Below are positions 13,787 through 46,014 of a DNA stretch of 47,894 nucleotides, piece by piece. A program made the translations under genes and the position numbers. Origin of the DNA: a virus; the UHGV virus genome UHGV-1372926; one strand, given 5' to 3'. Below the pieces are notes generated by a model. That model saw only the letters and a program-made list of their open reading frames with translations, was not told where the DNA came from and searched no databases. Within the stretch, counting starts at the first letter, position 1; each line of letters begins with the position of its first letter.

Positions 13787-13800
13787 TGACGTAGATTGAA
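13787..13800 (+). promoter_or_regulatory. conserved box cTGACGTAGATTGA upstream of the + strand island
   Basis: One copy of the recurrent TTGACGTAGATTGA motif. A TTGACA lies 19 bp upstream at 13768-13773. Confidence 0.4.
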
Positions 13801-13827
13801 AGCATAAGGTGATTGAGGGTTTGACAT

Positions 13828-13962
13828 ATGAACGAGACTGATGCTGATTTGAGATTTTACATCGACCTTTACATCGATCAGGGTTACACCTATGAAGAGG
13901 CCCGCGTAAAGGCGATTTTGTTGCTGGCTAAGATTGGCGTAGTGGTGGAGGATAAGAGATGA
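13828..13962 (+). CDS. small hypothetical protein (44 aa)
   Basis: ATG preceded by GAGGG. Stop overlaps the next ATG (ATGA). Below the ORF-track length cut-off. Confidence 0.35.
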   Translation: MNETDADLRFYIDLYIDQGYTYEEARVKAILLLAKIGVVVEDKR

Positions 13963-14335
13963 GCACTGATTACAGCAAGATGAGTGATTTTGAGGTTAAT
14001 TTATGTGTTGCAGAGATTGTTGTCGACTACGACTGCATATCAAGGCTCCTTATACGGGAATGGCGGTGCACTGGGGTGACGGTGCAAATTGGCATGCCTT
14101 TAACCCATGCAACAACCCAGCAGATGCATGGCAGATTATTGTTGGCAACAAGATTAGCATCGTATCACTCGATAACAAATGGATTGCGGCTCCGGTTGAT
14201 ACAGTAATTGATGGCATCACCGGAGATTCTGAAGTTTGTTTTTATGCAAGCTATGATGCCGTCTCTGATGTAAATCCATTGCGCGCTGCCATGATTGTCT
14301 TCCTCATGATGCAGGAGTCCAAAAATGCCAGTTAA
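13959..14335 (+). CDS. DUF2591-like phage protein, apparently split across two frames (13959..14207 and 14003..14335)
   Basis: N-terminus MSTDYSKMSDFEVNLCVAEIVVDYDC is in one frame. The protein-like continuation YTGMAVHWGDGANWHAFNPCNNPADAWQIIVGNKISIV... is in the -1 frame. Flanking residues in each frame are low-complexity. Confidence 0.4.
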
Positions 14336-14477
14336 CAAAGACGACGAAGATGTGATATCTGCATATGCAGGCCAGCGCATCGACATAAACTATGCGATAG
14401 CAATTCACCTGAGACGATCTGAGTTTATTGCTAATCTGATTTTGTGGGGCATCAAGAACAAGACGAGGAAAGCATGA
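14325..14477 (+). CDS. small hypothetical protein (50 aa)
   Basis: ATG at 14325. Stop overlaps the ATG of the next gene (ATGA at 14474). Confidence 0.3.
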   Translation: MPVNKDDEDVISAYAGQRIDINYAIAIHLRRSEFIANLILWGIKNKTRKA

Positions 14478-14695
14478 GAATAGCACTTATTCAGGACCAT
14501 GATGTTTTGAAATGCCTTGGGAAAATGAGTGATGGTGAGCCAACGTATTATGTGAGAAATCTACTATCTTACATATACAAAGGAATAGATACGCCTTCCG
14601 TGCTAAGGAAGCTAAAGGATATGGAAAAAAGAGGGCTTGTGAAAAGGGTTAACAGTAAATTCTTTGTTAACAATATCAGCTGGACATTAAAATAA
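14474..14695 (+). CDS. small winged-helix DNA-binding protein (putative transcriptional regulator)
   Basis: 73 aa from the internal ATG of track ORF 14444..14695. Motif NLLSYIYKGIDTPSVLRKLKDMEKRGLVKRV resembles a wHTH recognition helix plus wing. Confidence 0.45.
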   Translation: MRIALIQDHDVLKCLGKMSDGEPTYYVRNLLSYIYKGIDTPSVLRKLKDMEKRGLVKRVNSKFFVNNISWTLK

Positions 14696-14719
14696 ACCCC
14701 CTTTCGGGGGTTTTCTTTA
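14690..14719. terminator. bidirectional rho-independent terminator
   Basis: AAATAAA-CCCCC-TTTC-GGGGG-TTTTCTTTA between convergent + island and major tail gene. Confidence 0.75.
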
Positions 14720-15472
14720 TGCCGTAACGGTAACAACACACTTGGTGGAGTCAACGTAATCAGGACTGGTTGCCGAGTCCATCACGCGGCAGAAGTACGT
14801 ACCAGCATCACCTGCGGCGGCTGTGGCCTTGGTGAACGTGTCGGTAGTAGCACCGCTGATCGGCGAAGTGCCTTTATACCATTGATAGGTATAAGGTTCG
14901 ACACCGCCAGCCGCAACTACCGGACCTAGCGTCAGGGTGGCGCCAGTGGCAACGCTTTTGGTTGCACTGATATCAGTGGTCAGCGTCAAATCTTCGATGC
15001 TGGACACGTCAACGGTAGAGCCATCATACGGCTTAAATTCAACCGAGCCGGTGATGATGTCGTTGGTGCCGCCATCATAGCTCAGCGCGGTGATGTTGCA
15101 GTAGGCCACGACAACGGTATTGCCGGTTGTCTGGCGAACCCACAGCGACGGCTGGCGACGCGCCTTGACTTCGGTGACAAAGTATTTGATGAGGTTATGT
15201 ACGCCATACTCATCAGCCTTGTCAGCCTTGCGAACTTCAAAATCACCTGAAATGGTGAGGTCTGCGGTAGTGACCAGCGTTGCGACAAAGCCATCGCCAT
15301 CATCAGCCTCTGAGGTAGTGGTGCTTGGGCTGAAGTCGACGCCTTTTGAGGTCATGGGAGCAAAAAACTTCCAATCTTCCTCTGCTGGCACAGCATCCCA
15401 GCAGCCATCAGCCAGCTCAATGAGCGACTGGCGACCTGTGATGATGCCGTTATCATTTGCACAAATAGCCAT
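14717..15472 (-). CDS. major tail protein with C-terminal Ig-like (Big_2-type) domain
   Basis: 251 aa ORF. C-terminal motif (VEPYTYQWYKG...GTYFCRVMDSA) typical of Ig-like domains appended to siphophage major tail proteins. Sits between neck genes and chaperone/TMP. Confidence 0.7.
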   Translation of the reverse strand: MAICANDNGIITGRQSLIELADGCWDAVPAEEDWKFFAPMTSKGVDFSPSTTTSEADDGDGFVATLVTTADLTISGDFEVRKADKADEYGVHNLIKYFVTEVKARRQPSLWVRQTTGNTVVVAYCNITALSYDGGTNDIITGSVEFKPYDGSTVDVSSIEDLTLTTDISATKSVATGATLTLGPVVAAGGVEPYTYQWYKGTSPISGATTDTFTKATAAAGDAGTYFCRVMDSATSPDYVDSTKCVVTVTA

Positions 15473-15516
15473 GTTTAGAATCCTCTGTGTTTAGCTAAAC
15501 AATCGCATTATATCAT

Positions 15517-15545
15517 GTTGACAGGTTTTGATTGGTGTTGTAGAT
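15517..15545 (+). promoter_or_regulatory. sigma70-like promoter TTGACA-N17-TAGATT upstream of the tRNA genes
   Basis: -35 TTGACA at 15517-15522. 17 bp spacer. TAGATT at 15540-15545. Same architecture as other phage promoters in this window. Confidence 0.5.
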
Positions 15546-15928
15546 TAAATGGCAGATAGTTTTCGGTGCGACTTTGCGGGTTTTTAGAAACTGACCACAA
15601 AGATAAATGCAAACGAAGAAGTGTATCTGGCAGTAGCCTAACGGCTAAACACCAGCAAGGTCTTCCGACTCCTTGTCAATTAATTCGGCGCACTGGCCCG
15701 GTGTGATTAATAATGGGCACACAACAGGTAAGAGCATTAAATAACTTGCAAAGATCTTAACGGTCTGCGAAAGCGTATCATAGTGGCACAACTGGCAGGT
15801 ACAACTGAGTGCTCTTTCCGTTGTGGTGAAGTACAAGATGACAGTGCTGATGAATCGGGGACATCAAAACCCTTGAGCCGGGTTATATGGGGACGGCAAC
15901 AACGCGACTTCAGCCACCACAACACAAC

Positions 15929-16005
15929 GCACCATTAGCTCATCAGGATAGAGCAATTGCCTTCTAAGCAATCGGTAACTGGTTCGAATCCAGTATGGTG
16001 CACCA
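15929..16005 (+). tRNA. tRNA-Arg (anticodon TCT)
   Basis: Manual cloverleaf fold. Acceptor GCACCAT/ATGGTGC. D-stem GCTC/GAGC. Anticodon stem ATTGC/GCAAT with loop CTTCTAA. T-stem ACTGG/CCAGT with loop TTCGAAT. Discriminator A plus CCA. Confidence 0.8.
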
Positions 16006-16008
16006 AAT

Positions 16009-16085
16009 TCCCGTTTAGCTTAACTGGTTAAAGCACCCGACTCATAATCGGATGATTACAGGTTCGAATCCTGTCGCGGGAACCA
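16009..16085 (+). tRNA. tRNA-Met/fMet or Ile2-type (anticodon CAT)
   Basis: Manual fold. D-stem GCTT/AAGC. Anticodon loop CTCATAA. T-stem ACAGG/CCTGT with loop TTCGAAT. 3' CGCGGGA-A-CCA. One mismatch each in acceptor and anticodon stems. Confidence 0.65.
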
Positions 16086-16469
16086 TTACTCACCAAAAAC
16101 AACCCTCAGCAACAACTCATAAACAGGCCTTTTCTCTGTCGTAAGCGTAGGGCGGCCAAGCGGCGCCTGTAACTGAATCATGCCAATACAACTATCAACG
16201 GGATGCTCTTTGATATATGAGATGACATCAAGCGCTTTTGCTTTTGTTTCCTCGATGTTGTACTGACCCTGCTGACCGACAACATAGAGCGAAAAATAAT
16301 AATCATTGCTGAGGCTTTTGCTTACGCTTGTTCCGCCATTGGATTGCAGCACCATAAACCGGTCGGTGCCAACTTCGGTATCATTCCAGAACTCAAGCTG
16401 AGAAGTCCACCCGTCATAAAGACCGGCATCGCTAAGGTACTGGTCAACAAGCTCAAGCATATCTCTCAT
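16086..16469 (-). CDS. neck / tail completion protein (putative)
   Basis: 127 aa ORF at the distal end of the head-tail joining gene block. Start overlaps the stop of the upstream gp10-like gene. Confidence 0.4.
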   Translation of the reverse strand: MRDMLELVDQYLSDAGLYDGWTSQLEFWNDTEVGTDRFMVLQSNGGTSVSKSLSNDYYFSLYVVGQQGQYNIEETKAKALDVISYIKEHPVDSCIGMIQLQAPLGRPTLTTEKRPVYELLLRVVFGE

Positions 16470-16882
16470 TTTAGTGTCATCTCTTTTTTGATTACCTGTT
16501 CGACAAGCTCGCGTGTGTTTTCGCCAGCCTTGAGAAGGAATTTAGGCTCGCCGCTCGGGTCCCATACATTTCCCTTTCCTTTAAGTTTCCCTGTGCGTGG
16601 CGTGTTCGTGCCCAGCAGCGTACCAGGTGCATTATGGACATACAGGGCGTAATTGGCAGCATACCCAATCTTGCCAGTTATGCGAGTGCCATTAACTTCA
16701 ACGGTGTCATACTGGCTGTTTATCAACGCTGACGTGGCCACTGGCGTCATGGAGGCCGATTCAGTCCTGATGATGTAGTTAGCAGCTTTTATTGCTGATA
16801 CCGCCTTCTCGCCAGTAATCTCGCCGACTATCTGCTGAGTGCGCTTAATAGCCTGCTGGATACCTCGCATTTTGGCGGCCAT
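16466..16882 (-). CDS. head-tail joining protein (HK97 gp10-like)
   Basis: 138 aa ORF. N-terminal MAAKMRGIQQAIKR... and size typical of the gp10-like neck family. Position in the connector cluster. Confidence 0.5.
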   Translation of the reverse strand: MAAKMRGIQQAIKRTQQIVGEITGEKAVSAIKAANYIIRTESASMTPVATSALINSQYDTVEVNGTRITGKIGYAANYALYVHNAPGTLLGTNTPRTGKLKGKGNVWDPSGEPKFLLKAGENTRELVEQVIKKEMTLK

Positions 16883-16885
16883 ACA

Positions 16886-17230
16886 TTACCCCGTTACCAG
16901 CGCAAAATCAGGCAGGTCATTGCGGTCTAACGTATTGCCGTAATTCACGACGTTTCTAATCTGGTCAGCTCCGGAAGCCAAAGGGTCAGCGCTGGTGATA
17001 GTGCCAAGCATGATGAAGTCGCCAACAGACGCATTCTGATATTCCGTCCAGAATGTGTTTTTCTGTGCAATCTCATTGCCAGCTGTGCCGGTGGTCAAAT
17101 TCTTATCGAAGCCATAATCACACATGATGGATTCTGGCGCGGCGAATGTTGGCTTGCCATACTTATCCTTGCCAGTAAGCCGCCAGATTGTGCATGGCTG
17201 CGTATAGCTCCATCTCGCTATTGCTGACAT
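16886..17230 (-). CDS. head-tail adaptor / head completion protein (putative)
   Basis: 114 aa ORF in the connector cluster. Confidence 0.45.
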   Translation of the reverse strand: MSAIARWSYTQPCTIWRLTGKDKYGKPTFAAPESIMCDYGFDKNLTTGTAGNEIAQKNTFWTEYQNASVGDFIMLGTITSADPLASGADQIRNVVNYGNTLDRNDLPDFALVTG

Positions 17231-17348
17231 GGCGCGGCCTCAAGAGTATAAACCCAGCGCGGAACAGGAAGGCGCAGCAACACCAGAATAACCAGCAGCG
17301 GCATGCACCATTTACGGATTGCGATATTTACAGTTAATGTTGACGTTT

Positions 17349-17741
17349 TCATCTACACTTACTCCCGGTAACAACCCGAAACCACGGCTTTGCTGCCCCA
17401 TCAGGCTCCTCCACAAGGTCGCCGGTGCAGCCTGCCGTATCGAGTAGTTTCATCTGATTATAAAGGGCCATCCACGGCTTACTGCCATAGCCAAATGATT
17501 GCGACGCACCAGATGGTGCCCGGTGGCTGGTGATATACCTACCGGCAGTATTTGAGGCGATAAGGATTGAGGCCCATAGCAGAATTGCATCCTGCCTGCA
17601 TGTGTCTTCAGGGTAGTTAAGCTCAAGACACTCTGTGATGCTCGCCACCAGACACAGGATGCCCGTTGCGTCCGCCGTGGTGATAGTTACGCCTCTTGAC
17701 GCCATGGCGGCGACAAGTTCACTTGCTGTCGGTGCTGCCAT
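17349..17741 (-). CDS. head-tail connector protein (gp6-like)
   Basis: 130 aa from internal ATG at 17741, RBS GGGAGAG. Motif ...ILCLVASITECLELNYPED... resembles gp6-like connector proteins. Confidence 0.5.
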   Translation of the reverse strand: MAAPTASELVAAMASRGVTITTADATGILCLVASITECLELNYPEDTCRQDAILLWASILIASNTAGRYITSHRAPSGASQSFGYGSKPWMALYNQMKLLDTAGCTGDLVEEPDGAAKPWFRVVTGSKCR

Positions 17742-18006
17742 TCTTTTTGCTCTCCCGAATCTTCCACCACATCTCAAAAAGGTTTTTTGCCACCAGTGAC
17801 AGCGCGCCAAGTATAGAGGCTACCGCTGCCCATTCGGTAATCGAATGGGGGATCATTGAGGCAATGTATGATTGTGCGACCGGCGTCTGCTCTGCCACCT
17901 TCAGGCCAAGGCCCGTACCAATGGATGTATAACCGGCTTTGTCGATTACCTGGCCGACAGTGCCACTAATTATCTGGTTTGCGGCGTGCTGAAGCGCGTC
18001 TCTCAT
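17719..18006 (-). CDS. hypothetical small membrane-associated protein
   Basis: 95 aa ORF with GGAG RBS. Hydrophobic segment ITEWAAVASILGALSLVA. Confidence 0.4.
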   Translation of the reverse strand: MRDALQHAANQIISGTVGQVIDKAGYTSIGTGLGLKVAEQTPVAQSYIASMIPHSITEWAAVASILGALSLVAKNLFEMWWKIRESKKNGSTDSK

Positions 18007-18167: not shown

Positions 18168-18196
18168 TTGACGTAGATTGAGGGTGTCGCTATAGT
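18168..18196 (+). promoter_or_regulatory. sigma70-like promoter TTGACG-N17-TATAGT containing the conserved GTAGATTGA box
   Basis: -35 TTGACG at 18168-18173. 17 bp spacer starting TAGATTGA. -10 TATAGT at 18191-18196. Upstream of the + operon starting at 18234. Confidence 0.55.
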
Positions 18197-18233
18197 GATG
18201 ACGTAGAAACAACAATAAATGTTAGAGGTGATG

Positions 18234-18545
18234 AGGATGAATGAATTCAAAGGCACGCCGGGGCCGTGGTTTGGAGATAACAGCAGGGCAATAGGGCCAA
18301 AATCAACAGAGGACGACCAGTCTTATGGAATGATTATTCCTGTCGGCTGGGTTGAGTTTGACCCTGAAGTTGAGGTTCAAGTTGCTAACCAACGAATAAT
18401 GGCCGCTGCGCCTGAACTTCTCGATGCGCTCCAGCTTGCTGAAAAGGTGATGGTAGGTCGCAGCAATCTTACATACGATGAGTGGCATGGCGCTGTCGAT
18501 AAGGCTCGCTCCGCCATCACCAAAGCACTCGGAGAATCCCAATGA
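18234..18545 (+). CDS. conserved phage protein (GPW / AAAPELL motif family)
   Basis: ATG at 18234 after GAGGTGATGAGG. Motifs GTPGPW and AAAPELLDAL are seen in Ead/Ea22-like lambdoid proteins. Confidence 0.45.
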   Translation, partial: RMNEFKGTPGPWFGDNSRAIGPKSTEDDQSYGMIIPVGWVEFDPEVEVQVANQRIMAAAPELLDALQLAEKVMVGRSNLTYDEWHGAVDKARSAITKALGESQ

Positions 18546-18658: not shown

Positions 18659-18665
18659 GGAAAAG

Positions 18666-19481
18666 ATGACATCTCTCGGAAAAATTTACTCAGACAAAGA
18701 AACTCGCGGCGGAATCGTGGTCAACAAAGGTTATCAGGTTCCTGTCGACCAGCTTTATCTTGAGCCGGGGTACAACATCCGCGAAGCCGATGAACAGCAC
18801 GTTGAATACTTCGCGCAGTGCTGGGAATCAGGCCAGCCAATCCCGGCGTTAACTGTTATTCCTGATGCCGACGGAAAGCGCATCAAGATTCTTGACGGCC
18901 AGCATCGTTACCTTGGAGCACTACGTGCCATTGAGCGCGGCGTGCCAATTGCGCGCATTGAGTGCAAAGACTTCACCGGCGATGAAGCGGATAAAATCGC
19001 CTTCATGGTGTCATCCAGTCAGGGTAAGCAGCTTGACCCGCTTGAGCGTGCAAAGGCTTATGTGCGCCTCAAAGGGTTCGGGTGGACGAATGAAGAAATC
19101 GCCAAGAAGGTCGGCCGCTCAGTTTCTGATGTGCAGATGCACCTGTCACTTGGTGATGTACCTGACGCTATCAAGCAGCGCATCAATGCAGGCCAAATCA
19201 GCTATGCCAACGCCGTTGCAGTGGCGCGCGAGCATGGCGATGATGCCGTTAACGTTATTGATACTGCCGTTAAGGAAGCGAAAGCGCAGGGCAAGGATAA
19301 GGTGACGGCTAAAACTCTCAAGGCCAAAAAAGTTAAGCCGATTGACCGCCTGATTCAGCTTCTGAAAGAAGCAGACCACATGGTTGTCGCTGAGGGTCAT
19401 GTGGCACAGGAGACAGAAGAATTTTTGCGCCTTCCTTCCGCTGAGTTGAGTGAAGTGCTGGCGATTCTGGAGAAGCTGTGA
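18666..19481 (+). CDS. ParB-like nuclease domain protein (DGQHR motif) with C-terminal HTH
   Basis: 272 aa from ATG at 18666, RBS GAGGAAAAG. Motif KILDGQHRYLGAL characteristic of the ParB/Srx N-terminal domain. Later segment NEEIAKKVGRSVSDVQMHLSL is HTH-like. Confidence 0.65.
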   Translation: MTSLGKIYSDKETRGGIVVNKGYQVPVDQLYLEPGYNIREADEQHVEYFAQCWESGQPIPALTVIPDADGKRIKILDGQHRYLGALRAIERGVPIARIECKDFTGDEADKIAFMVSSSQGKQLDPLERAKAYVRLKGFGWTNEEIAKKVGRSVSDVQMHLSLGDVPDAIKQRINAGQISYANAVAVAREHGDDAVNVIDTAVKEAKAQGKDKVTAKTLKAKKVKPIDRLIQLLKEADHMVVAEGHVAQETEEFLRLPSAELSEVLAILEKL

Positions 19482-20384: not shown

Positions 20385-20386
20385 TG

Positions 20387-20668: not shown

Positions 20669-20671
20669 CAG

Positions 20672-20700
20672 AACAAAGCCCCTTTCGGGGCTTTTCTTTT
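20672..20700. terminator. bidirectional rho-independent terminator
   Basis: ACAAA-GCCCC-TTTC-GGGGC-TTTTCTTTT between convergent modules. Confidence 0.75.
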
Positions 20701-20701
20701 A

Positions 20702-21520: not shown

Positions 21521-21530
21521 GATAACCCCC

Positions 21531-25906: not shown

Positions 25907-26178
25907 TTCTCCTCCTCATCAAAATATTTAATCTCGCCATCAACCATGTTTTGCCATGGGATATGCAAATCAGTGCCATTAACTGACAGCATGATGCTGT
26001 TATCCATCTCCGCGCATCCATCAGCGAAGAAGGTGCTTTTCTTTCCGTTTAGCCACTCAATTGTTACTCTGCATTTTCTTTGTTCCACTATCCACCCCAT
26101 CTCTCTGCGATTATTGGCCGTGCGTTCACAATTGGTGACAAACAGCACGGTTCCTGATTTATGCTTTACCGCCCACAT
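25903..26178 (-). CDS. hypothetical protein
   Basis: 91 aa ORF, coupled in the operon. Confidence 0.4.
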   Translation of the reverse strand: MWAVKHKSGTVLFVTNCERTANNRREMGWIVEQRKCRVTIEWLNGKKSTFFADGCAEMDNSIMLSVNGTDLHIPWQNMVDGEIKYFDEEEK

Positions 26179-26690
26179 GACTGGCGCGCCCCGGCAAGCA
26201 GCCTTTCAAACATCATCCTGTCACGGCTCATGCCAAACGGGATAACCTCCTGCCAGTAATATTTCCATGCGCCGCCGGGAAGCATTTCACGGTCAACCTG
26301 ACCAATGCTTGCTAGGTAGCGCATGCGTGCTTTGATGGTGGTGTAACTCACCCCAATGGCTGATGATATCTGTTTGCTTTTGCTGCCCGGGTGCGCCTCA
26401 AGATGTTGCTGAATAGCCAAATCAAGCGCAGTATTATCGGGATTGAGGAAATACTTAAAGCAGCGCCTGCCATGGCTTATCCCTTCCTCTTTGACAATAA
26501 ACCCCATTTTTTCCATCTCTACCAGGCAGAGATTTATTCTGACTCGGTCATTGACGCCGGTCTGCTTGCGAAGCATTGCATTAGTCGCGCCGGGGTGCCG
26601 TTCGATAATGCTGATGAGCTGGGTCTTAAAGTCCATTTGCGCGCTCCATTGCATCCTGTTTGTAGTCGTCAGCAGTATAGAGATGGCCAC
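26166..26690 (-). CDS. winged-helix DNA-binding protein (putative transcription regulator)
   Basis: 174 aa ORF, likely starting at the internal MDFKTQ (ATG about 26636). Two HTH-like segments (GATNAMLRKQTGVNDRVRINLCLVEMEKMGFI and ISSAIGVSYTTIKARMRYLASIGQV). Confidence 0.45.
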   Translation of the reverse strand: MAISILLTTTNRMQWSAQMDFKTQLISIIERHPGATNAMLRKQTGVNDRVRINLCLVEMEKMGFIVKEEGISHGRRCFKYFLNPDNTALDLAIQQHLEAHPGSKSKQISSAIGVSYTTIKARMRYLASIGQVDREMLPGGAWKYYWQEVIPFGMSRDRMMFERLLAGARQSCGR

Positions 26691-27282: not shown

Positions 27283-27349
27283 TAAGCATTTGCAGAGTCT
27301 CCCGGCAATCGCGCTTATGAACCTCTGTCACCTCCTGCCACTTCTTCAT
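27134..27349 (-). CDS. hypothetical acidic protein, first gene of the leftward early operon
   Basis: 72 aa from ATG at 27349 with strong RBS AAGGTGGTG. Confidence 0.45.
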   Translation of the reverse strand: MKKWQEVTEVHKRDCRETLQMLNVPESIIKSIEQRIDLAAMEAAHEAEEAQMLSWMDRTLPGVLHRGKTTN

Positions 27350-27395
27350 TCCACACCACCTTTTATCATTATGGTACAATCTACAACACAGAGTA

Positions 27396-27421
27396 TTGAC
27401 TAATTGACGTAGATTCGTCAA
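27396..27421. promoter_or_regulatory. divergent early control region with perfect palindrome TTGACGTAGATTCGTCAA
   Basis: TTGACT at 27396. TTGACG-N6-CGTCAA inverted repeat at 27404-27421 between divergent operons 27349 (-) and 27445 (+). Confidence 0.5.
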
Positions 27422-27444: not shown

Positions 27445-27645
27445 ATGGCGAGACAACGCAAAGAACCACTGGAAGCACTGACTGAGATTATCGCTAAGCG
27501 CCAGCCGTTAAGCCTGCGAGATGTCAGATATTACGCGCACTGCTATGTAGCAATGCGGGAATGGAGCGCTGAAGAAATGTATGCGTTTGTGCGCGAACAC
27601 TTCAGCGTGGATGAGAAAAACAAGGTCACGTTGAGAGGTGAGTGA
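27445..27645 (+). CDS. hypothetical protein, first gene of the rightward early operon
   Basis: 66 aa ORF with RBS GGAGAG. Confidence 0.45.
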   Translation: MARQRKEPLEALTEIIAKRQPLSLRDVRYYAHCYVAMREWSAEEMYAFVREHFSVDEKNKVTLRGE

Positions 27646-29072: not shown

Positions 29073-29103
29073 TAAAACAAAGCCCCTTTACGGGGCTTTT
29101 TTA
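29073..29103. terminator. bidirectional rho-independent terminator
   Basis: AAAACAAA-GCCCC-TTTAC-GGGGC-TTTTTTATT. Near-identical to the hairpin at 20672. Confidence 0.75.
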
Positions 29104-31016: not shown

Positions 31017-31030
31017 TTGACGTAGATTGA
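31017..31030 (+). promoter_or_regulatory. conserved box TTGACGTAGATTGA (promoter -35 region) upstream of the 31074 operon
   Basis: Exact copy of the recurrent 14-mer, 44 bp upstream of the ATG at 31074. RBS GGAGAG. Confidence 0.5.
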
Positions 31031-31073
31031 ATCGTAAGCGATGATGTAGATACACAAACACAGGAGAGTAAAA

Positions 31074-31364
31074 ATGAAAAAATTAATCGCAGCAGCAATT
31101 ATCGCAATGGCTTCATTTGGCGCATCAGCTGGTGAAGTGTGTAACAAAGTTGGTGATGTTGGATTCGCCGCGGCCGACGCTCGTGATTCCGGCGTACCTC
31201 AGAGCGTGGCAATGGCGGTAGCACAAAGCCCTGAGTACGGAGTGGACGCCAACAAGGTGCTTGGTGCAACAGTGAAGATGACCTACTCAATGCCGAACAA
31301 GACACCAAAAGAAATCAAGGCAATCACAATTGCGCTTTGCGTATCAAGCATGGGTGACTTGTAA
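31074..31364 (+). CDS. small secreted/periplasmic protein (signal peptide)
   Basis: 96 aa ORF. N-terminal MKKLIAAAIIAMASFGASA|GEV matches a signal peptidase I signal. Two Cys in the mature part. Confidence 0.5.
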   Translation: MKKLIAAAIIAMASFGASAGEVCNKVGDVGFAAADARDSGVPQSVAMAVAQSPEYGVDANKVLGATVKMTYSMPNKTPKEIKAITIALCVSSMGDL

Positions 31365-32328: not shown

Positions 32329-32528
32329 TAAGTATAGAGTGAGCAAGAAAAGCCTCGCCGGAAGAATTGTTATGGCGCCACTGTTTTTCATTGTTTTGGT
32401 TATCGAGGTAACGCTGAATAAAGCTGATGACTGGAGCTGCCATGTAAGACGATTCAGGATTAAGATGACTGACTTTGTTGATAAGAAGTTTCCGCTGGAA
32501 AACAACAAAAAAAACTAATATTTGACAG

Positions 32529-32553
32529 AAGCCGCCATCAGGCGGCTTTCTTG
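32529..32553. terminator. rho-independent terminator-like hairpin
   Basis: AAGCCGCC-ATCA-GGCGGCTT followed by TCTTGTGTG. Overlaps the stop of the head morphogenesis gene. Confidence 0.45.
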
Positions 32554-34905: not shown

Positions 34906-34954
34906 TTCGTCACCATAAAAAATCCCATCGCATGGATGGGATTATAGCATGGTA

Positions 34955-35743: not shown

Positions 35744-35922
35744 TCAATCTCCTCGCCATTAACCCAGCGTTGCAGGACTCCGATAAGCTGCGCGGCCTGG
35801 TGTTTGTCGATGATTAACTTGTCATCTCTTCCGGTCCCATCATTTTGCTGCGAACAATGCAGCGCTCCGCTGTCGCTTAGAAACAACTTAACATCGTGAA
35901 AATATTCACCTTCAATAATCAT
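35740..35922 (-). CDS. hypothetical small protein (island gene 2)
   Basis: 60 aa ORF, ATGA-coupled. Confidence 0.35.
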   Translation of the reverse strand: MIIEGEYFHDVKLFLSDSGALHCSQQNDGTGRDDKLIIDKHQAAQLIGVLQRWVNGEEIE

Positions 35923-36158
35923 AAATCGCCACCCTCATCGTTATTTAACTCAACATTCCGGAAGAAATCATTAATCGTCTTTAGGCCACTATAACCACGG
36001 CGCCGCTGTAACTCACACAGCACTTCATCATACATGCGCAGAAGAATGGCCTCATCCACATCGTACCTTTCGCACAGTACCTCATCAGACACACCAGCCC
36101 TTGCGAGTGAGTATATTTTTTCCTTCTGCTCCCACGAAAAAGATGAGTATGCCTTCAT
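35919..36158 (-). CDS. small HTH DNA-binding protein (island gene 1)
   Basis: 79 aa ORF. Motif SWEQKEKIYSLARAGVSDEVLCERYDVDEAILLRM resembles Tnp/sigma-r4-type HTH. Confidence 0.45.
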   Translation of the reverse strand: MKAYSSFSWEQKEKIYSLARAGVSDEVLCERYDVDEAILLRMYDEVLCELQRRRGYSGLKTINDFFRNVELNNDEGGDL

Positions 36159-36191: not shown

Positions 36192-36220
36192 TTGACGTAG
36201 ATTCTAGCATGGCGTAGATT
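36192..36220 (+). promoter_or_regulatory. sigma70-like promoter TTGACG-N17-TAGATT
   Basis: -35 TTGACG at 36192-36197. Spacer begins with TAGATT. -10 TAGATT at 36215-36220. Upstream of the gene at 36247. Confidence 0.5.
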
Positions 36221-36246
36221 AAAATGAAACCTCTCGGAGAAATCTT

Positions 36247-36537
36247 ATGAAATGTGTCATTTTCGAGCTTGATGGGGTGCTGCGTGATGCAGAAGGAAAT
36301 GCTATTTCTGGCAACGTTGCGCTGGCTAAGTCACTCTACTCTGCCGGGCATGATGTGCTTATCATGAGGGCAAAGCATGCGTATGAGTGGCTGCATGCTA
36401 ACGATGTTTTCTATGATGACATTATGGCTTCGCACCAGCAGATTGACGCAGAAAGGGTGGCAATGGCGGTCGTGTCTGATGACGTGATTTATGCCGCCAT
36501 GCGCAACGCGGGGATTCATTGTTGGCTTTACAAATAA
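36247..36537 (+). CDS. hypothetical protein with HAD-like DxDG motif
   Basis: 96 aa ORF. N-terminal VIFELDGVL resembles HAD phosphatase motif I, but the protein is too short for a complete HAD fold. Confidence 0.4.
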   Translation: MKCVIFELDGVLRDAEGNAISGNVALAKSLYSAGHDVLIMRAKHAYEWLHANDVFYDDIMASHQQIDAERVAMAVVSDDVIYAAMRNAGIHCWLYK

Positions 36538-36550
36538 TTTATTATAAATG

Positions 36551-36579
36551 TTGACGTGGGTTCATGGTTGACGTAGATT
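36551..36579 (+). promoter_or_regulatory. sigma70-like promoter TTGACG-N17-TAGATT
   Basis: -35 TTGACG at 36551-36556. 17 bp spacer ending in a second TTGACG. TAGATT at 36574-36579. Confidence 0.5.
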
Positions 36580-36627
36580 GTAGTCATTGAGGCGGCAATG
36601 GTTCCGCGAATGAATGAGGATAAAAAA

Positions 36628-36816
36628 ATGAACACATACGACCTGACCACTAAAAACGTACCAGCTTTCGAGGTTGTAGAGAATGGCCCAGACTCCACAG
36701 ACTACGTTGTTGCAACCGTTAAGGGTGAGGCTGCTGCCCGTCTGCGCGCCTCATCTTTTCAGGAGAGAAATGCTTATCTTGGATATGGGTATACCATTCG
36801 CCCAGTCGCGGCATAA
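36628..36816 (+). CDS. hypothetical small protein
   Basis: 62 aa from ATG at 36628, RBS GAGGA. Confidence 0.4.
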   Translation: MNTYDLTTKNVPAFEVVENGPDSTDYVVATVKGEAAARLRASSFQERNAYLGYGYTIRPVAA

Positions 36817-36836
36817 AGACAAATTGAGCCCCGGCA
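36806..36836 (+). terminator. rho-independent terminator
   Basis: GCCCCG-GCAA-CGGGGC followed by TTTTTCTT. Confidence 0.7.
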
Positions 36837-36849
36837 ACGGGGCTTTTTC

Positions 36850-38713: not shown

Positions 38714-38776
38714 GTCGTTTTCGTCTTTTCGTAAACCGAATACAGATATATTAACACATGGCGTAGATAAAAAAAG

Positions 38777-41812: not shown

Positions 41813-41818
41813 AAATCC

Positions 41819-42097
41819 TCACTTAACCGCCTGTAAACGCTCAAGCTCACGCATCAGCGCAGATACACGGCGTTGCCGCAAAGTTTCTGCATGCTCTTTT
41901 GCCTGCTGCTCATCAAGCCAGTACTCACCACGTTTAAAGTAAACATCGCCAACCACAGCCACCTGACCATCTGCGAATAGCTGTGCGCTTTCGTACTTCT
42001 GAATGCCACGGGTCAATGCATACTTCGTGACCCATATAGTCTCAGCGCTTGCCGCGTTAGCGATAACCAGTAGAACCACTGCCAGTAATTTATTCAT
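41819..42097 (-). CDS. small secreted periplasmic protein (signal peptide, no lipobox)
   Basis: 92 aa ORF. N-terminal MNKLLAVVLLVIANAASA|ETIW matches a signal peptidase I signal. Confidence 0.5.
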   Translation of the reverse strand: MNKLLAVVLLVIANAASAETIWVTKYALTRGIQKYESAQLFADGQVAVVGDVYFKRGEYWLDEQQAKEHAETLRQRRVSALMRELERLQAVK

Positions 42098-42112
42098 CGT
42101 TGCTAAACCGGT

Positions 42113-42313
42113 TTAGTTTCCACCAGATGACACGATAACCTGCTCAAGCACTCTCTGCTTGCCTTCGCCTATAAAAACGCGACAGACGCGCTTACCGTTG
42201 CTGTATGCATGCATTGCCTGCGCCATCATAAAGTTTTGCGCTTTCACTGCGCCCATTTCTGGCTCCAGTTGTGTGCGTGTGTAGATTGCTTTGGTCATTC
42301 TGAGATACTCCAT
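42113..42313 (-). CDS. hypothetical small protein
   Basis: 66 aa ORF. Confidence 0.4.
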   Translation of the reverse strand: MEYLRMTKAIYTRTQLEPEMGAVKAQNFMMAQAMHAYSNGKRVCRVFIGEGKQRVLEQVIVSSGGN

Positions 42314-42333
42314 TTAGCGTGAAGGCATTCTGG

Positions 42334-42517
42334 TTACAGGCAGAAGCTTTTCGTACCCATATCATTTACGATTTCGAATCCAAATTCTGTTTTTATTTTT
42401 CCGTACTGGCATTCATCACCAATAGCAGAAACAATCTCATAAGACTTACCCTCTGTCAGATAGCCGCCTGAGCCAAGTTTTACTTCTGTTGCTGTAACAA
42501 TTTGTCCTTTTTTTCAT
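42334..42517 (-). CDS. small protein gene requiring a +1 shift at an A7 run (ATG AAA AAA AGG ...)
   Basis: ATG with RBS AAGAGGTGA opens a frame that terminates after 23 codons. The +1 frame encodes a protein-like 60 aa continuation (KKGQIVTATEVKLGSGGYLTEGKSYEIVSAIGDECQYGKIKTEFGFEIVNDMGTKSFCL). The T7 run is at 42508-42514 on the + strand. Confidence 0.4.
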
Positions 42518-42548
42518 TCTTCATCACCTCTTTGTTGTTGGTGTGGTA

Positions 42549-42577
42549 ACTATACGATGGCGCTCAATCTACGTCAA
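42549..42577 (-). promoter_or_regulatory. sigma70-like promoter TTGACG-N17-TATAGT (leftward) with the GTAGATTGA box
   Basis: Reverse strand reads TTGACGTAGATTGAGCGCCATCGTATAGT. Drives the 42517 to 41396 leftward operon. Confidence 0.55.
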
Positions 42578-42633
42578 TATGGTGGTGAAAATAAATCCGA
42601 TTGGGGTAGTTTTTTGCTCGTGGGGCAGGCCTT

Positions 42634-42894
42634 GGGGAAGGTCGTCTTCCCCATATTTTTTACACATTTCCTTTGTTTTTATTGGTTTTTTTTGAAAAGG
42701 GTTAAAAGGGTTAGATTTGACCAGCATCCACTTATAAACATCCCCAATAATCCATATTTTAATTTAATGTTAAATTACTATCTATAATATGAATAATAAT
42801 ATTCCCCTTTAACCCTAATAATAATATTATTGTTATATTACATATACTTAGATAGTTAATGCGTGGGGAAGGTGGTGCGCCCCACGGCTTCCCC
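42634..42894. repeat. candidate replication origin: two TGGGGAAGG...CTTCCCCA inverted repeats flanking tandem AAAGGGTTA iterons and an AT-rich tract
   Basis: IR1 at 42634-42652 (GGGGAAG-gtcgt-CTTCCCC). IR2 at 42865-42894. Tandem 9-mers AAAGGGTTA at 42696-42713 with inverted copies TTAACCCT at 42809 and TAACCCT at 42898. Long AT-rich stretch 42740-42860 with AATAATAATATT x2. Confidence 0.45.
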
Positions 42895-42925
42895 AGCTAA
42901 CCCTGTAGCCAGCAAAAACGTAGCA

Positions 42926-42954
42926 TTGCTATCTCTGCTATATTTTTATATAAT
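42926..42954 (+). promoter_or_regulatory. near-consensus sigma70 promoter TTGCTA-N17-TATAAT
   Basis: -35 TTGCTA at 42926-42931. 17 bp spacer. -10 TATAAT at 42949-42954. Upstream of the small HTH gene and the DUF3987-like gene. Confidence 0.55.
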
Positions 42955-42986
42955 CATGGCAACCAATGAGGCTGGAAGGAGGTATC

Positions 42987-43199
42987 GTGTTAAAGAAAAA
43001 ATCAAAAATGAACACCGTGAGGGATGCTGTGTCAACCATGAAGGTTGATGAGTGTAAGGTTGTAAACCTTTCAACTATTGGTATTGAGGCTGCTTTATTC
43101 AGAATGTGCCTTTCGAAGATTTCAAAAAACAGCACTCGAATTTACTGGACAAAGTACAACAGAGATAATTCTGAAATTACTATTTTAAGGGTTCAGTGA
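42987..43199 (+). CDS. small HTH-like protein (putative origin-binding or regulator)
   Basis: GTG at 42987 7 nt after GGAAGGAGG. Alternative ATG at 43008. Segment STIGIEAALFRMCLSKI is HTH-like. ATGA-coupled to the next gene. Confidence 0.4.
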   Translation: MLKKKSKMNTVRDAVSTMKVDECKVVNLSTIGIEAALFRMCLSKISKNSTRIYWTKYNRDNSEITILRVQ

Positions 43200-44752
43200 T
43201 GATTACAGCTCAGGACATATTCAATCAGGCAAGAGAAGCGCACACCTCTGCTGCGCGCGTAGCCATTCATCATGGCATGACACCAAGCCATAACATGTGG
43301 CCGGAAATCAAGGAGGGTCAGGAGAAGGATGTAACATACTCGGAGATAGAACTTACCAGCGACAACAGGAAAGACCTGATAACCCGCTACTCAGTTGCAG
43401 CAGCAAGGGCTGTGCAATTCCCCGTTAGCACATCATTCATGCACCTGCTGGGATGCGTAGCCAGTGCCATGACGCGAAATTTTAGCGTTGAATACTACGG
43501 TTCTGAATTGCCTGTTTCCTTGTACGTGGTGACGTCGCAGCCTCCATCTGCTGGCAAGACAGCTATCAACTCAATGCACATGAACCCGATAAAAATTGAG
43601 TATGACAACCTGTCAAAAAAGATGGAGAAGGAAATTGTAAAGATAAACATTCGCATTGAAGACCTGATGAAGGCTTACAAGGAGGCGACGAATCAGAACG
43701 CGAAGGCCATCATTGGAGATGATATTGCGAAAGAGAAGGAGAAACTGGAAAGCCTTTACACCATCACCTACCCGTTAACCGACGCAACACCAGAAGCTGT
43801 GCAGCACCAGGCAATTCATGAAGGTGGATTTTTCAACCTGATAAGTGATGAAGCAAGCGTTTTAAATACATGTCTTGGCCTTTCGTATGGCAAAGATGGT
43901 GGAAAGTCTAACGCCGAGGTCATCCTGAAAGGCTGGGATGGCGGTTTTGTTGGCTCAGCTCGCGTTGGTCGCGGTGTTTCATCTGGCTATGTGCTTGGTA
44001 ATATCAGCGTCATTGCGCAGGATGAAAGTATTGACGCCATTCTGTCTGCTGGTGACAGAGGTAATGGATTGTCAGAGCGATTCCTGATGCTTCGTGAGCA
44101 GTCAATGCTGGGTTATCGTGAGCATTGGGATGTGGAAAATGATTGCCCGGTAAGTAAGCCAATGCCTAAAGAACTAAAGGCAGAATATGCCAGATTTGTG
44201 CATAACCTTGTGGTTTCTGAGAAGGTTGTTTTCTCTCTCGCTAAAGAATCTCAACGTATGATTGGACTTTTGCGAAACCAGTGGGAAAAGAATTTTCTGC
44301 CTGGTGGCAAATGGGATCACGTTTTGCTTCGTGGCGCCATGGGTAAGGCTGACAAACAGATAATCAGGCTTTCGGCAATATTCCATGCCGCTGAAAACTG
44401 GTGCGATGGCGGTCGTCGCTCAAAAATTATTGGTGAGGAGCATATAAGCCGCGCCATAAGCGTTTATGATGCACTAACAAAAACATTTACCGATGCCGTT
44501 GAGTCAAATGGATACGCTGGCGAGAAATCTGAAATTGATGTTGTTGCTGAAAAATTGCGTACAGCTGCGCAAAAAGGAAAGACAAATGTCACGGTGAAAT
44601 GGCTTTATGATTCACTAAAAAACGTTAGGCCATTCAAGGGCATACCGCATATTTACGACAGACTCAAGTCAAACGTTTTGCCGTCTCTTGAAGAAGATGG
44701 ATATTGCGTATTCCTCAATAATACTGTTTACCTGAATCCAAGGCTTAAATGA
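43196..44752 (+). CDS. replication ATPase / helicase-like protein (DUF3987 / P4 alpha C-terminal-like)
   Basis: 518 aa ORF with P-loop TSQPPSAGKT and downstream acidic LISDEAS (Walker B-like). Adjacent to the candidate origin and the primase. Confidence 0.55.
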   Translation: MMITAQDIFNQAREAHTSAARVAIHHGMTPSHNMWPEIKEGQEKDVTYSEIELTSDNRKDLITRYSVAAARAVQFPVSTSFMHLLGCVASAMTRNFSVEYYGSELPVSLYVVTSQPPSAGKTAINSMHMNPIKIEYDNLSKKMEKEIVKINIRIEDLMKAYKEATNQNAKAIIGDDIAKEKEKLESLYTITYPLTDATPEAVQHQAIHEGGFFNLISDEASVLNTCLGLSYGKDGGKSNAEVILKGWDGGFVGSARVGRGVSSGYVLGNISVIAQDESIDAILSAGDRGNGLSERFLMLREQSMLGYREHWDVENDCPVSKPMPKELKAEYARFVHNLVVSEKVVFSLAKESQRMIGLLRNQWEKNFLPGGKWDHVLLRGAMGKADKQIIRLSAIFHAAENWCDGGRRSKIIGEEHISRAISVYDALTKTFTDAVESNGYAGEKSEIDVVAEKLRTAAQKGKTNVTVKWLYDSLKNVRPFKGIPHIYDRLKSNVLPSLEEDGYCVFLNNTVYLNPRLK

Positions 44753-45048
44753 TGAATAGATTACAAAGAAGAGTTGTATGTGCAGCAAATAAATATGATT
44801 GCGGATACGGCGGGATTGATATGGTTTTTATAGGTGTTAGACATTTCTGCCCGGTAATGCGTCAGAATATGGAGCCACATAAGGATTTCATAAAGCGAGA
44901 ATCTGAAGTGCAAGGGTTCATTGACCAATTCGGTGTGTTTATGGACAGGAAAGAGGCGCTTGAGGTAGCAAGAAATGCGGGACAACTAAATATTGCTCGA
45001 ATAAAGACATGGCCTGATAATGAGTTGTTCAGCGAAGATTTATATTGA
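44749..45048 (+). CDS. hypothetical protein
   Basis: 99 aa ORF, ATGA-coupled. Confidence 0.4.
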   Translation: MMNRLQRRVVCAANKYDCGYGGIDMVFIGVRHFCPVMRQNMEPHKDFIKRESEVQGFIDQFGVFMDRKEALEVARNAGQLNIARIKTWPDNELFSEDLY

Positions 45049-45051
45049 ACA

Positions 45052-45085
45052 AAAAACCCTCCTGATGGAGGGTTTATTTTTTTAG
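45052..45085. terminator. bidirectional rho-independent terminator
   Basis: AAAAAA-CCCTCC-TGAT-GGAGGG-TTTATTTTTTT between the convergent + gene and the primase. Confidence 0.75.
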
Positions 45086-45958
45086 TGCTTCAAATAGCTC
45101 TTCTGGTTTGTACAGCCTTTTTCTGATGGCGCCACTGTAACGAATATCCCGCCCGTCATCAGTAATCAGTATTGGCAGGCCGGCATTCTCGGCGGCGCAT
45201 ACCTCATCGAAATCATTATTAATGATGCAGCGCAGTTTAGTTCGCTGTTCATCGCTCACATTGCGCACAACTTCCCACATGTTCTCCGGCGACCAGCAAC
45301 ACCAGACATGTGCGCCGGTAAGCCGGTGTGCTCGCCAGGCATCGAAGTAATCCGCAACCAGGTATGTCCACTCCGAATTATTGCCAATCGGTGTCACTGC
45401 GCCGCGCGTAAGTCTTCCGCGAGTGTACTCATGGCTGAAACCCGCGCGAAATGACACGCTTTCATCATCAGCCAGAAAAGCCACATTGCATGGTGTCATA
45501 GTTCCAGCAATATAGAGCGGTATCGCCACCAGTTCACCGGTTTTACCGGTTATGGTGTCGCCTCCTGCTTTTTCCATGATGGCCTCCACTTCTGCCTCTG
45601 TCAGGTAGTCAGAAGCATGGTTGACCTTCGGAAGTTGCTTTCTAATCGCCTCAAGTTTTTCGCGTGGGTGCATGTTCAGAAATCCGGCCAGTGCCTCCAT
45701 TGACTCTGGAAACGTCATTCCTGACAGCTTCATTAGCCAGGTGATGCCGCTGCCGTTTCCGCACTGGTTGCAGATGGCGCCGCCGTCGCCTTTGTAGTCT
45801 AAGTGGTCATCGAATCTAAACCTGTCCTTTCCAGCGCAACTTGGGCATGGCTGATGTTTACCATTGAAAATTCTCACGTCGACATTGACTATCGACATGA
45901 TGGCCGCCTGCCAGTTACCTACCATTAAAGGCTCTATATCCTTCCAGTCGTATCGCAT
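45074..45958 (-). CDS. DNA primase (CHC2 zinc finger + Toprim, P4 alpha N-terminal-like)
   Basis: 294 aa ORF with zinc-binding CPSCAGKDRFRF...CNQCG. Acidic Toprim-like segment (LVADYF..., ITDDGRD). Confidence 0.7.
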   Translation of the reverse strand: MRYDWKDIEPLMVGNWQAAIMSIVNVDVRIFNGKHQPCPSCAGKDRFRFDDHLDYKGDGGAICNQCGNGSGITWLMKLSGMTFPESMEALAGFLNMHPREKLEAIRKQLPKVNHASDYLTEAEVEAIMEKAGGDTITGKTGELVAIPLYIAGTMTPCNVAFLADDESVSFRAGFSHEYTRGRLTRGAVTPIGNNSEWTYLVADYFDAWRAHRLTGAHVWCCWSPENMWEVVRNVSDEQRTKLRCIINNDFDEVCAAENAGLPILITDDGRDIRYSGAIRKRLYKPEELFEALKK

Positions 45959-45974
45959 AATTTAACCTTGATTA

Positions 45975-46014
45975 TTGCCGTAGATTCAGTCTACTATTGT
46001 GACGTAGATTGAGC
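45975..46014 (+). promoter_or_regulatory. divergent control region with two copies of the GTAGATT box (TTGCCGTAGATT and TGTGACGTAGATTGAGC)
   Basis: Between the primase (-) and helicase (+) starts. No clean -10 spacing could be assigned. Confidence 0.4.

Follow-up and report, generated by a model that had tools for sequence, protein, structure and literature searches.

What is the short sequence that recurs upstream of one gene block after another in the viral genome UHGV-1372926, and what reads it? This stretch of 47,894 nucleotides (nt), or 47.9 kilobases (kb), hereafter the window, is the nearly complete genome of a Klebsiella siphophage of the Roufvirus/Skatevirus type. The element is a box of 13-14 base pairs (bp), TTGAYGTAGATTGA, found in the promoters of almost all early and middle transcription units of the window and its relatives. 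A sequence-only reading had taken its copies to mark promoter regions and to be the site of a factor co-located with the -35 element. The explanation that we favour, with evenly divided confidence, is that the box would be a sigma70 promoter core used in two different ways and, at the same time, an operator for a phage protein, with p66, a 66-residue product of the window, as the best candidate.

The window is 93-95% identical, across about 75% of its length, to vB_KpnS_MK54 (MK54), DP01 and the 'Aeromonas' phage pIS4-A, all of the genus Roufvirus, and about 75% identical in nucleotide sequence to E. coli phage ASO78B and Salmonella phage Skate over the 2.6-kb region compared. A third lineage is made up of uncultured IMG/VR contigs, in which the portal is 65-67% and a ParB-like protein 67-73% identical to the window's. 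Orthologous promoters were compared in MK54, pIS4-A, VLCpiS13d, ASO78B and Skate, and a box matrix was built from the exact cores of five genomes and applied with a score cut-off of at least 12. The description of these phages as T1-like holds remotely only, because the window's helicase is just 42% identical to the helicases of T1-type Drexlerviridae; T1 itself lacks the box. The relatives' GenBank records annotate no integrase or repressor gene, and ASO78B is without lysogeny genes according to its published description. Gene blocks alternate by strand: the backbone (small genes, terminase, portal, head, lysis and tail) is on the minus strand, and islands are found on the plus strand together with replication and recombination genes. 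The helicase gene crosses the right end of the window and resumes at its left end.

By every count the box stands out from the rest of the genome. Its weight matrix yields the consensus (T)TGAYGTAGATT(G/c)(A), which is asymmetric and most strongly conserved in the central GTAGA. The exact 14-mer TTGACGTAGATTGA occurs three times against none expected (18168 and 31017 on the plus strand, 42564-42577 on the minus strand). The core GACGTAGATT is present exactly at eight sites and, with up to one mismatch, at 12 sites against 1.84 expected, a number not attained in any of 100 shuffles. Words of the box lead the over-represented 7-, 8- and 9-mers of the whole genome, with GTAGATT (17 copies against 2.8 expected) the top 7-mer and TGACGTAGA (nine against 0.13) the top 9-mer. 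The matrix scan of the window found 16 boxes where 2.1 were expected. Fifteen of the 16 are intergenic, in a genome whose intergenic share is just about 11-14%, and all 15 point toward the next gene, which bears out the earlier claim that the copies lie almost entirely between genes and upstream of transcription units. A density check between coding and intergenic sequence, proposed with that claim, likewise came out in its favour: six genomes together hold 77 intergenic and 12 coding boxes, and T1 has only two matches, at chance level, so that a box shared with T1 was ruled out.

The sequence-only reading had listed the 14-mer at more places than it occupies. The copies at 18168, 31017 and 42577 (minus strand) are exact; the other listed sites are near-copies with one to three mismatches. 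Its list lacked the boxes at 1002, 15535, 18198 and 31041 on the plus strand and at 27376 on the minus strand. Of two variants that it reported, the one near 36211 is genuine, lying at 36209-36222 as the partner of the 36192 box, whereas the one at 38758 has a low score (8.9), is antisense to the neighbouring genes, falls in a region whose orthologue is not conserved in relatives, and is probably a chance match. An exact 14-mer scan of IMG/VR returned mainly relatives plus chance matches. We found no description of the box in the searchable literature, nor in the papers on ASO78B, ZCKp20p and the BASEL collection; the GenBank record of ASO78B annotates three box sites, merely as generic sigma70 matches. 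The boxes of the window and the promoter elements predicted around them are as follows.

1002-1015, plus strand: box TTGATGTAGATTGA within the replication/recombination block; TAGATT at 1008-1013 as predicted -10, TTGATG at 985-990, 17 bp upstream; 29 nt to the ATG at 1043
13768-13799, plus strand: predicted promoter TTGACA (13768-13773)-N18-TAGATT; box CTGACGTAGATTGA at 13786-13799, a near-copy beginning CTGACG (earlier placed at 13787); 30 nt to the ATG at 13828
15518-15548, plus strand: predicted promoter TTGACA-N17-TAGATT; box GTGTTGTAGATTAA at 15535-15548; upstream of the transfer RNA (tRNA) genes tRNA-Arg and tRNA-Met at 15929-16085
18168-18211, plus strand: predicted promoter of the ParB-like operon; exact box TTGACGTAGATTGA at 18168-18181 as -35, TATAGT at 18191-18196, 17 bp downstream
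18198-18211, plus strand: second box ATGACGTAGAAACA, at about +1 of the ParB-like operon promoter
27376-27389, minus strand: box GTGTTGTAGATTGT in a divergent region; 28 nt to the ATG at 27349
27404-27417, plus strand: box TTGACGTAGATTCG, a near-copy ending TTCG, back-to-back with the 27376 box; TTGACT at 27394-27399 upstream; 29 nt to the ATG at 27445 (p66)
31017-31030, plus strand: exact box TTGACGTAGATTGA as predicted -35, with a weak -10, GATGAT, at 31040-31045; ATG at 31074
31041-31054, plus strand: second box ATGATGTAGATACA, behind the 31017 box
36192-36222, plus strand: tandem boxes 17 bp apart; TTGACG of the first (36192-36205, a near-copy ending TTCT) as predicted -35, TAGATT at 36215-36220 in ATGGCGTAGATTAA as -10; ATG at 36247
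36551-36581, plus strand: tandem boxes 17 bp apart; degenerate TTGACGTGGGTTCA, with three mismatches, as predicted -35, then TTGACGTAGATTGT (from 36568, a near-copy ending TTGT) with TAGATT at 36574-36579 as -10; ATG at 36598
42549-42577, minus strand: predicted promoter TTGACG-N17-TATAGT; exact box TTGACGTAGATTGA at 42577-42564; ATG at 42517
45975-45988: box TTGCCGTAGATTCA, a near-copy beginning TTGCCG and ending TTCA, in the helicase/primase divergent region
45999-46012: box GTGACGTAGATTGA, a near-copy beginning GTGACG (earlier placed at 46001), 24 bp from the preceding box; 22 nt to the helicase GTG at 46033
46016-46011 and 45993-45988, minus strand: candidate primase promoter TTGCTC-N17-TAGACT, with one box in the spacer and one at about +1

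That the boxes mark promoter regions, as the sequence-only reading proposed, is supported by the way the genome is partitioned. Each plus-strand island opens with a box and closes with a strong intrinsic terminator of the hairpin-T type. On the minus strand a single strong box, at 42564, stands before the block of small genes, HNH gene and terminase. An exception is the plus-strand block from 42987 (DUF3987 primase/helicase), which has no box and a classical TTGCTA-N17-TATAAT at 42926-42954; this boxless promoter may be immediate-early. The terminators are these.

14694-14713: bidirectional intrinsic terminator, closing the 13828-14695 island
20675-20694: equivalent terminator
29079-29099: equivalent terminator
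32528-32549: equivalent terminator
36826-36845: equivalent terminator
45054-45075: equivalent terminator

Around the boxes, promoter-like hexamers occur in two geometries. At 1002, 13786, 15535, 36209 and 36568, TAGATT stands where a -10 would, with TTGATG, TTGACA or TTGACG 17-18 bp upstream and with 18-30 nt from its end to the start codon; as a -10 it retains T-12, A-11 and T-7. In this use the host sigma70 polymerase would read TAGATT as the -10, usually with one of the three hexamers in front of it. At five other sites the box is placed as a -35, the distance to the start codon is 35-49 nt, and the partner follows at exactly 17 bp: TATAGT at 18168 and 42577 (minus strand), the TAGATT of a second box at 36192 and 36551, and the weak GATGAT at 31017. 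Here TTGACG would be read as the -35 and TATAGT or TAGATT as the -10. The sequence-only reading had described the second geometry, and for these five sites, with 31017 the weaker, it stands; at about half of the sites TAGATT itself is the -10 hexamer and not, as supposed, a mere part of the spacer. As a -35 at 1002, 13786 or 27404, TTGACG would place the transcript start within the Shine-Dalgarno sequence or past it.

Both geometries also emerge when hexamers and distances are scored. A sigma70 two-hexamer test, with 16-18 bp spacing, gave 10/12 at 13768, 15518, 18168 and 42577 (minus strand), the best intergenic matches of the window; it was satisfied at 36192 and 36551 too (TTGACG-17-TAGATT), and 1002 and 31017 scored 9/12. 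No good partner hexamer was found on the own strand of the boxes at 27404, 27376 (minus strand), 45975 and 45999. A same-strand start codon lies within 75 nt of 58 of the 77 intergenic boxes in the six genomes, and the four window boxes lacking one belong to the tRNA promoter, a frameshifted small open reading frame (ORF) and the helicase gene that leaves the window end. Across the six genomes, the start codon's distance from the end of TAGATT has two peaks, one at 26-31 nt and the other at 43-49 nt. A shift of about 17 nt is the move of the start site expected between -10 and -35 use, so leader length remains constant, at a predicted 11-24 nt or so in either use. These two peaks are the best available sign that both uses are real. 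Taken with position and orientation, they suggest that the boxes very probably form the core of early and middle promoters that host sigma70 polymerase uses alternately as -10 or -35. The units whose promoters share the box would then be the islands of small genes, the tRNA genes, the ParB-like operon, the genes for replication and recombination, and the block leading into terminase.

Other readings of the same bases did not hold. With TAGATT as the -10, the matrix has A and C/T at -15/-14, and a test for an extended -10 (TGnTATAAT) failed; promoters that do carry TG at these positions are found without a box on the minus strand at 13755 (TGGTATAAT) and 34950 (TGCTATAAT). Extended -10, FNR/CRP, IHF and CII-type interpretations were ruled out by the position of the conserved bases. 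A role at the RNA level is unlikely, the box lying upstream of the predicted transcript start in either use; the only Rfam matches were the two tRNAs.

Among relatives, more of the box is conserved than sigma70 would need. In genomes of about 75% identity, the 18168 locus has an invariant TTGACGTAGATTG and an invariant TATAGT on either side of nine variable bases; MK54, pIS4-A, ASO78B, Skate and VLCpiS13d all keep TATAGT and both boxes. The earlier suggestion that conservation here goes beyond what sigma70 needs is thus upheld, TAGATTG being invariant next to a variable remainder of the spacer. At 13786, TGAYGTAGATT is kept while the spacer is otherwise different, measuring 17 bp instead of 18 (TTGACA-N17-GTGATGTAGATTCA in ASO78B and Skate). 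For the 42564 box, the Klebsiella phages have TATAGT as the -10, whereas in ASO78B and Skate that place, 17 bp downstream, is taken by a second box, the sequence being TTGACGTAGAGT/ATA-N-GATGTAGATTGA, that is, TTGACG-N17-TAGATT. The 15518-15548 promoter is kept in 5/5 relatives examined. The site orthologous to 1002 is a tandem GAYGTAGATTGATGTAGATT in MK54, ASO78B and Skate; both partners of the 27376/27404 pair are full boxes in Skate; the 31017 orthologue of ASO78B and Skate reads TTGACG-N17-CATAGT followed by an inverted ATCTACATC; and pIS4-A has TACAAT-G-AATCTACATC on the primase strand. In the third lineage GTAGATT is again the top 7-mer (16 against 2.8 expected), TGACGTAG is enriched and both uses are present.

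Across these sites, whichever half of the box is idle (TGAYG where the box is a -10, TAGATTGA where it is a -35) is conserved as strongly as the used half. Because this unused half persists while the neighbouring spacer drifts, we infer a trans-acting reader. Double promoter use does not explain the conservation, because the -10-use sites have no -10 at 17 bp past TTGAYG, except at 1002. Some arrangements point the same way. L264, of the third lineage, has an inverted box directly behind TTGACG-N17-TACATT, between two co-directional genes; a hairpin that follows its terminase stop codon and precedes the next gene has an inverted box on one side and a direct box on the other, with only 13 nt from the direct box to the ATG. 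Two antisense boxes lie just past the stop codon of the tail-fibre gene in both L210 and L212. Judged by their placement, these boxes cannot act as directional promoter elements. On balance, we lean slightly toward the view that the whole box, all 13 bp, is also bound by a phage-encoded protein. The sequence-only reading had placed such a factor site at the -35, but the factor need not be confined to that position. Since the site overlaps the -35 or the -10, or sits at +1, the bound protein would most likely repress these promoters jointly, as a shut-off or feedback control.

Some loci show features of their own. The leader of the ParB-like operon, 18198-18236 (GTAGAAACAACAATAAATGTTAGAGGTGATGAG), is almost invariant among genomes otherwise about 75% identical; this conservation exceeds what the second box needs, and the 5' untranslated region may have a function of its own. 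The roughly 380 nt from the box promoter to tRNA-Arg (15549-15928) contain no called ORF and no Rfam or ARAGORN match; relatives annotate a tRNA-Ser in the matching region, and the stretch may hold what is left of a decayed tRNA, or some other small RNA. Behind the 42564 box, the first gene (42517-42445, minus strand) has a run of seven A at 42514-42508, where pIS4-A has six; the ORF from the ATG at 42517 ends after 23 codons and the conserved reading continues in another frame, so the run is either a sequencing error or a genuine homopolymer frameshift. At 13745-13765 on the minus strand, the tail-operon promoter is a perfect extended -10, TGGTATAAT, with an inverted box just upstream of its -35 position; as the two adjoin, binding of a protein to the box could influence the promoters in both directions.

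Which protein might read the box? The sequence-only reading had named four small helix-turn-helix candidates. One of them, 26166-26690, does have a DNA-binding fold; the other three (14474-14695, 35919-36158 and 42987-43199) match no DNA-binding family, and the two best-fitting candidates were missing from its list. The candidates as we see them are the following, together with the gene pairs that link the first two.

27445-27645, plus strand: p66, 66 residues, with a basic N-terminal arm and a predicted winged-helix fold; first gene behind the 27404 box
18666-19481, plus strand: ParB/Spo0J/KorB-like protein, with a ParB N-terminal domain and HTH_ParB/KorB; possible partner or alternative binder
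26166-26636, minus strand: tandem winged-helix protein of 156 residues, annotated 'MarR family' in relatives; weaker candidate binder
L149 3702-4783, L273 2063-3204 and L274 570-1689: divergent p66-like/ParB-like gene pairs (62-67 and 269-283 residues), with about 71-86 bp and GTAGATT boxes between them

p66 was found in every box-bearing genome examined, and its copies in the third lineage are 60-68% identical. Its AlphaFold2 model has a predicted local distance difference test score (pLDDT) of 83 and a helix-helix-helix-wing layout. The family is tiny, with 16 representatives among 1.84 billion proteins. Among distant p66-like genes, 6/7 have GTAGA[TA] in an upstream region of about 90 nt, against a background of 0.15 per 100 nt. 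Boxes lie between a p66-like gene and a divergently transcribed ParB-like gene in L149/L212, L273 and L274/275, and L276 has the same intergenic layout beside its p66-like gene, the upstream gene being cut off; in the window the two genes are 8 kb apart. Co-occurrence with the box is thus seen for p66-like genes, but not for ParB-like genes on their own. The ParB-like protein is a genuine relative of Spo0J, Noc and KorB; its gene is present in all three lineages, with boxes at its promoter, two of them in the window. The tandem winged-helix protein, which has two domains that would suit the TTGA-N6-TTGA repeat, was set aside as a binder: no homologue was found in the syntenic loci of the third lineage. 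From this co-occurrence we tentatively name p66, possibly together with the ParB/KorB-like protein, as the best candidate reader; the two might act together by analogy with the KorA/KorB pair.

Several points weigh against this account. The p66 gene is an early gene, and if these phages simply use the box as their promoter type, its promoter would be expected to carry one as well. Co-occurrence fits that case too, so that the assignment should be taken as a lead rather than a result. All Foldseek neighbours of p66 are winged-helix DNA-binding domains, with TM-scores of 0.55-0.70, but the matches are statistically non-significant, with E-values above 0.1. As for the ParB-like protein, boxes are absent from 60 loci whose homologues are 41-50% identical, and they persist in VLCpiS13d even though its ParB-like gene has been swapped for a 19%-identical paralogue. 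The inverted boxes of relatives could be antisense promoters or could have been left behind when islands were deleted. The arrangement in which an inverted box directly adjoins a -10 hexamer is enriched only about 2-fold (15/191 against about 7.5), and a rule built on it was set aside for this reason. Where two genes diverge, there is no telling to which of them the orientation of a box belongs. Finally, a 13-bp operator that holds both a -35-like and a -10-like hexamer is not obviously parsimonious.

One rival would dispense with a dedicated reader: the box would be the promoter sequence that this lineage prefers for sigma70, its extra bases tuning polymerase binding in the spacer or discriminator or serving overlapping promoters. 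TTGACG and TAGATT are competent hexamers, the best intergenic sigma70-type matches are the box promoters, leader length is the same under both uses, and T4 early promoters, with more conserved positions than E. coli promoters, offer a precedent. Yet where the box is a -10, TGAYG spans -17 to -13 and supplies A and Y, not the TGn of an extended -10, at -15/-14. Nor does this rival account for the invariant TAGATTG beside a variable spacer in the -35-use site, for the -10-use sites other than 1002 that lack a usable -10 further on, or for the inverted and too-close boxes of the third lineage, and we consider it rather unlikely. Alternatively, the box could always be of the -10 type and be read by a phage-modified polymerase or a phage sigma-like factor, as for T4 late and phiEco32 middle/late promoters, the nearby -35 and TATAGT forming a separate, host-only promoter. 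This would suit the strong conservation of 11-13 bp around a -10-like hexamer, the strong gene-ward orientation, the sharp peak 26-31 nt from the ATG and the missing -35 at 27404, 27376 (minus strand) and 45999. It is unlikely in view of the second peak at 43-49 nt, shifted as expected for -35 use, and of a TATAGT kept at N17 across lineages; boxes 13-15 nt from an ATG (L264 at 8919, VLCpiS13d at 44706) would, moreover, give transcripts without a Shine-Dalgarno sequence. Among the candidates scanned, Pfam and PHROGs returned no credible sigma-like or RNA polymerase-binding protein, only a sub-cutoff Sigma70_r4_2 match on the helix-turn-helix of the ParB-like protein.

Could the ParB/KorB-like protein alone bind the boxes, as dispersed sites resembling parS or OB, for silencing or DNA organisation? 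Its HTH_ParB and KorB domains and its resemblance to Spo0J, Noc and KorB invite the idea, as do the two boxes in its own promoter, the palindromic box pair of L149 (GGTAGAT-ATTA-ATCTACC, plus a third copy) directly upstream of the gene, and the inverted TGATGTAGAATGA in the promoter spacer of the ParB-like operon in Jilinviruses. However, known ParB, Noc and KorB sites are palindromes of 13-16 bp and the box is asymmetric; a test for parS/OB palindromes failed, the inverted pairs being spaced variably (4, 12 and 17 bp). The boxless homologous loci, 60 in number, show no enrichment of TGAYGTAGA or GTAGAT[TA] (six against 7.5 expected), eight apparent upstream matches there being one coding-region match in near-identical loci. 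In VLCpiS13d the boxes outlast gene replacement: a 216-residue paralogue with a different helix-turn-helix (15979-16629) stands in for the 271-residue ParB-like gene and the small genes before it, behind the same two-box promoter. Binding by this protein alone is accordingly quite improbable. That the boxes are mainly sequences for recombination and module exchange at mobile islands, like the promoter-stem-loop cassettes of T4-type phages, with promoter activity secondary, seems very unlikely. They do border plus-strand islands whose genes differ among relatives, and the third lineage has just two boxes and a hairpin in place of the 36247-36816 island; but 13-14 bp is very short for homologous exchange, and tight start-codon distances and exact N17 partner hexamers point to transcriptional selection. 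Hardly credible is a host regulator, for instance of the CRP/FNR family, suggested by the likeness of TTGAT-N4-ATTGA to the FNR site TTGAT-N4-ATCAA (TTGATGTAGATTGA agrees at 8/10 positions with what we take to be the FNR consensus). The box is non-palindromic, its most conserved GTAGA would be FNR's non-specific spacer, its centre would lie about -28 or -11 from the predicted start and not at -41.5, and the third lineage keeps GTAGATT but not TTGA.

A sigma70 promoter core that doubles as a phage operator has its nearest known counterparts in the KorA/KorB regulon of RK2, the C1 operators of phage P1 and the phage-specific early and middle promoters of T4; by sequence and by defining geometry the box belongs to none of them. 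As in the KorA-KorB system of RK2/RP4, one short operator type is scattered over many promoters of a single replicon and overlaps or abuts core promoter elements; the window, too, encodes a ParB/KorB homologue, and a small gene with a DNA-binding fold is linked to it (divergently in L149, L273 and L274). In contrast, KorA and KorB operators are palindromic, whereas the box is asymmetric and itself supplies the -35 or the -10; p66, with its predicted winged helix, has no detectable homology to KorA, and the replicon is a virulent phage rather than a plasmid. The operators of P1 C1, asymmetric 17-bp sites at more than 10 dispersed promoters, resemble the box in asymmetry, in the many dispersed copies and in overlapping core elements of promoters of unrelated operons; they differ in sequence, and no C1-like protein was seen among the proteins scanned, which cover part of the proteome. 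With T4 early and middle promoters the box shares a phage-specific consensus richer than sigma70 requires, a single temporal class and the ability to replace a -35. Unlike it, the MotA box is fixed at about -30 and needs AsiA and MotA, and the phage box is found at -35, -10 or +1. No homologue of MotA or AsiA was detected by Pfam and PHROGs among the scanned proteins; the sole link is the MotA N-terminal domain as a weak fold neighbour of p66 (TM-score 0.58). Nor does the box fit a lambda CII-type site (TTGC-N6-TTGC), a direct repeat that straddles the -35 around a non-conserved 6-bp spacer: it does contain TTGA-N6-TTGA, yet conservation is highest in the central CGTAGA and lowest in the second TTGA.

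Phage T1 (NC_005833) has a highly repeated intergenic word of its own near -10-like hexamers, GTGCTATT (16 copies), unrelated to the box in sequence and position; its copies form AATAGCAC-TTTTTGTTAAAAC upstream of TATAGT-like hexamers and are mostly intergenic. A further T1 word, CTGAYTGGT, occurs 25 times on both strands, mostly within genes.

Elsewhere in the window, the words GGTGATGA and GAGGTGATGAG occur genome-wide in about 30 copies against nine expected and adjoin start codons directly; they are the phage's ribosome-binding-site consensus. The roughly 400 bp at 42578-42986 are non-coding and AT-rich, with inverted repeats GGGGAAGG...CTTCCCC, and may be a replication origin or the genome-end region. 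On the minus strand at 34906-34954, close in front of the portal gene, TGCTATAAT matches the extended -10 consensus and runs directly into a hairpin-T terminator (34943-34921); such a promoter-terminator order would be expected for late genes under antitermination control.

Transcription is uncharacterised in these widespread siphophages of Klebsiella, Salmonella and E. coli, several members of which have been proposed for therapy. The box provides a testable map both of the early and middle regulon and of about a dozen promoters in each genome, and singles out two or three concrete candidate regulators; as a compact 14-bp element it could also be used to engineer timed expression in these phages. 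More speculatively, p66 may represent a small, unrecognised winged-helix family, ancestrally paired with a ParB/KorB-like protein and running a KorA/KorB-style regulon in virulent siphophages of the Roufvirus/Skatevirus type, with an asymmetric operator fused to both hexamers into a portable 14-bp promoter-operator module that fits either sigma70 position. If p66 and the ParB-like protein do form such a pair, KorA/KorB-type global control would reach from plasmids to lytic phages.

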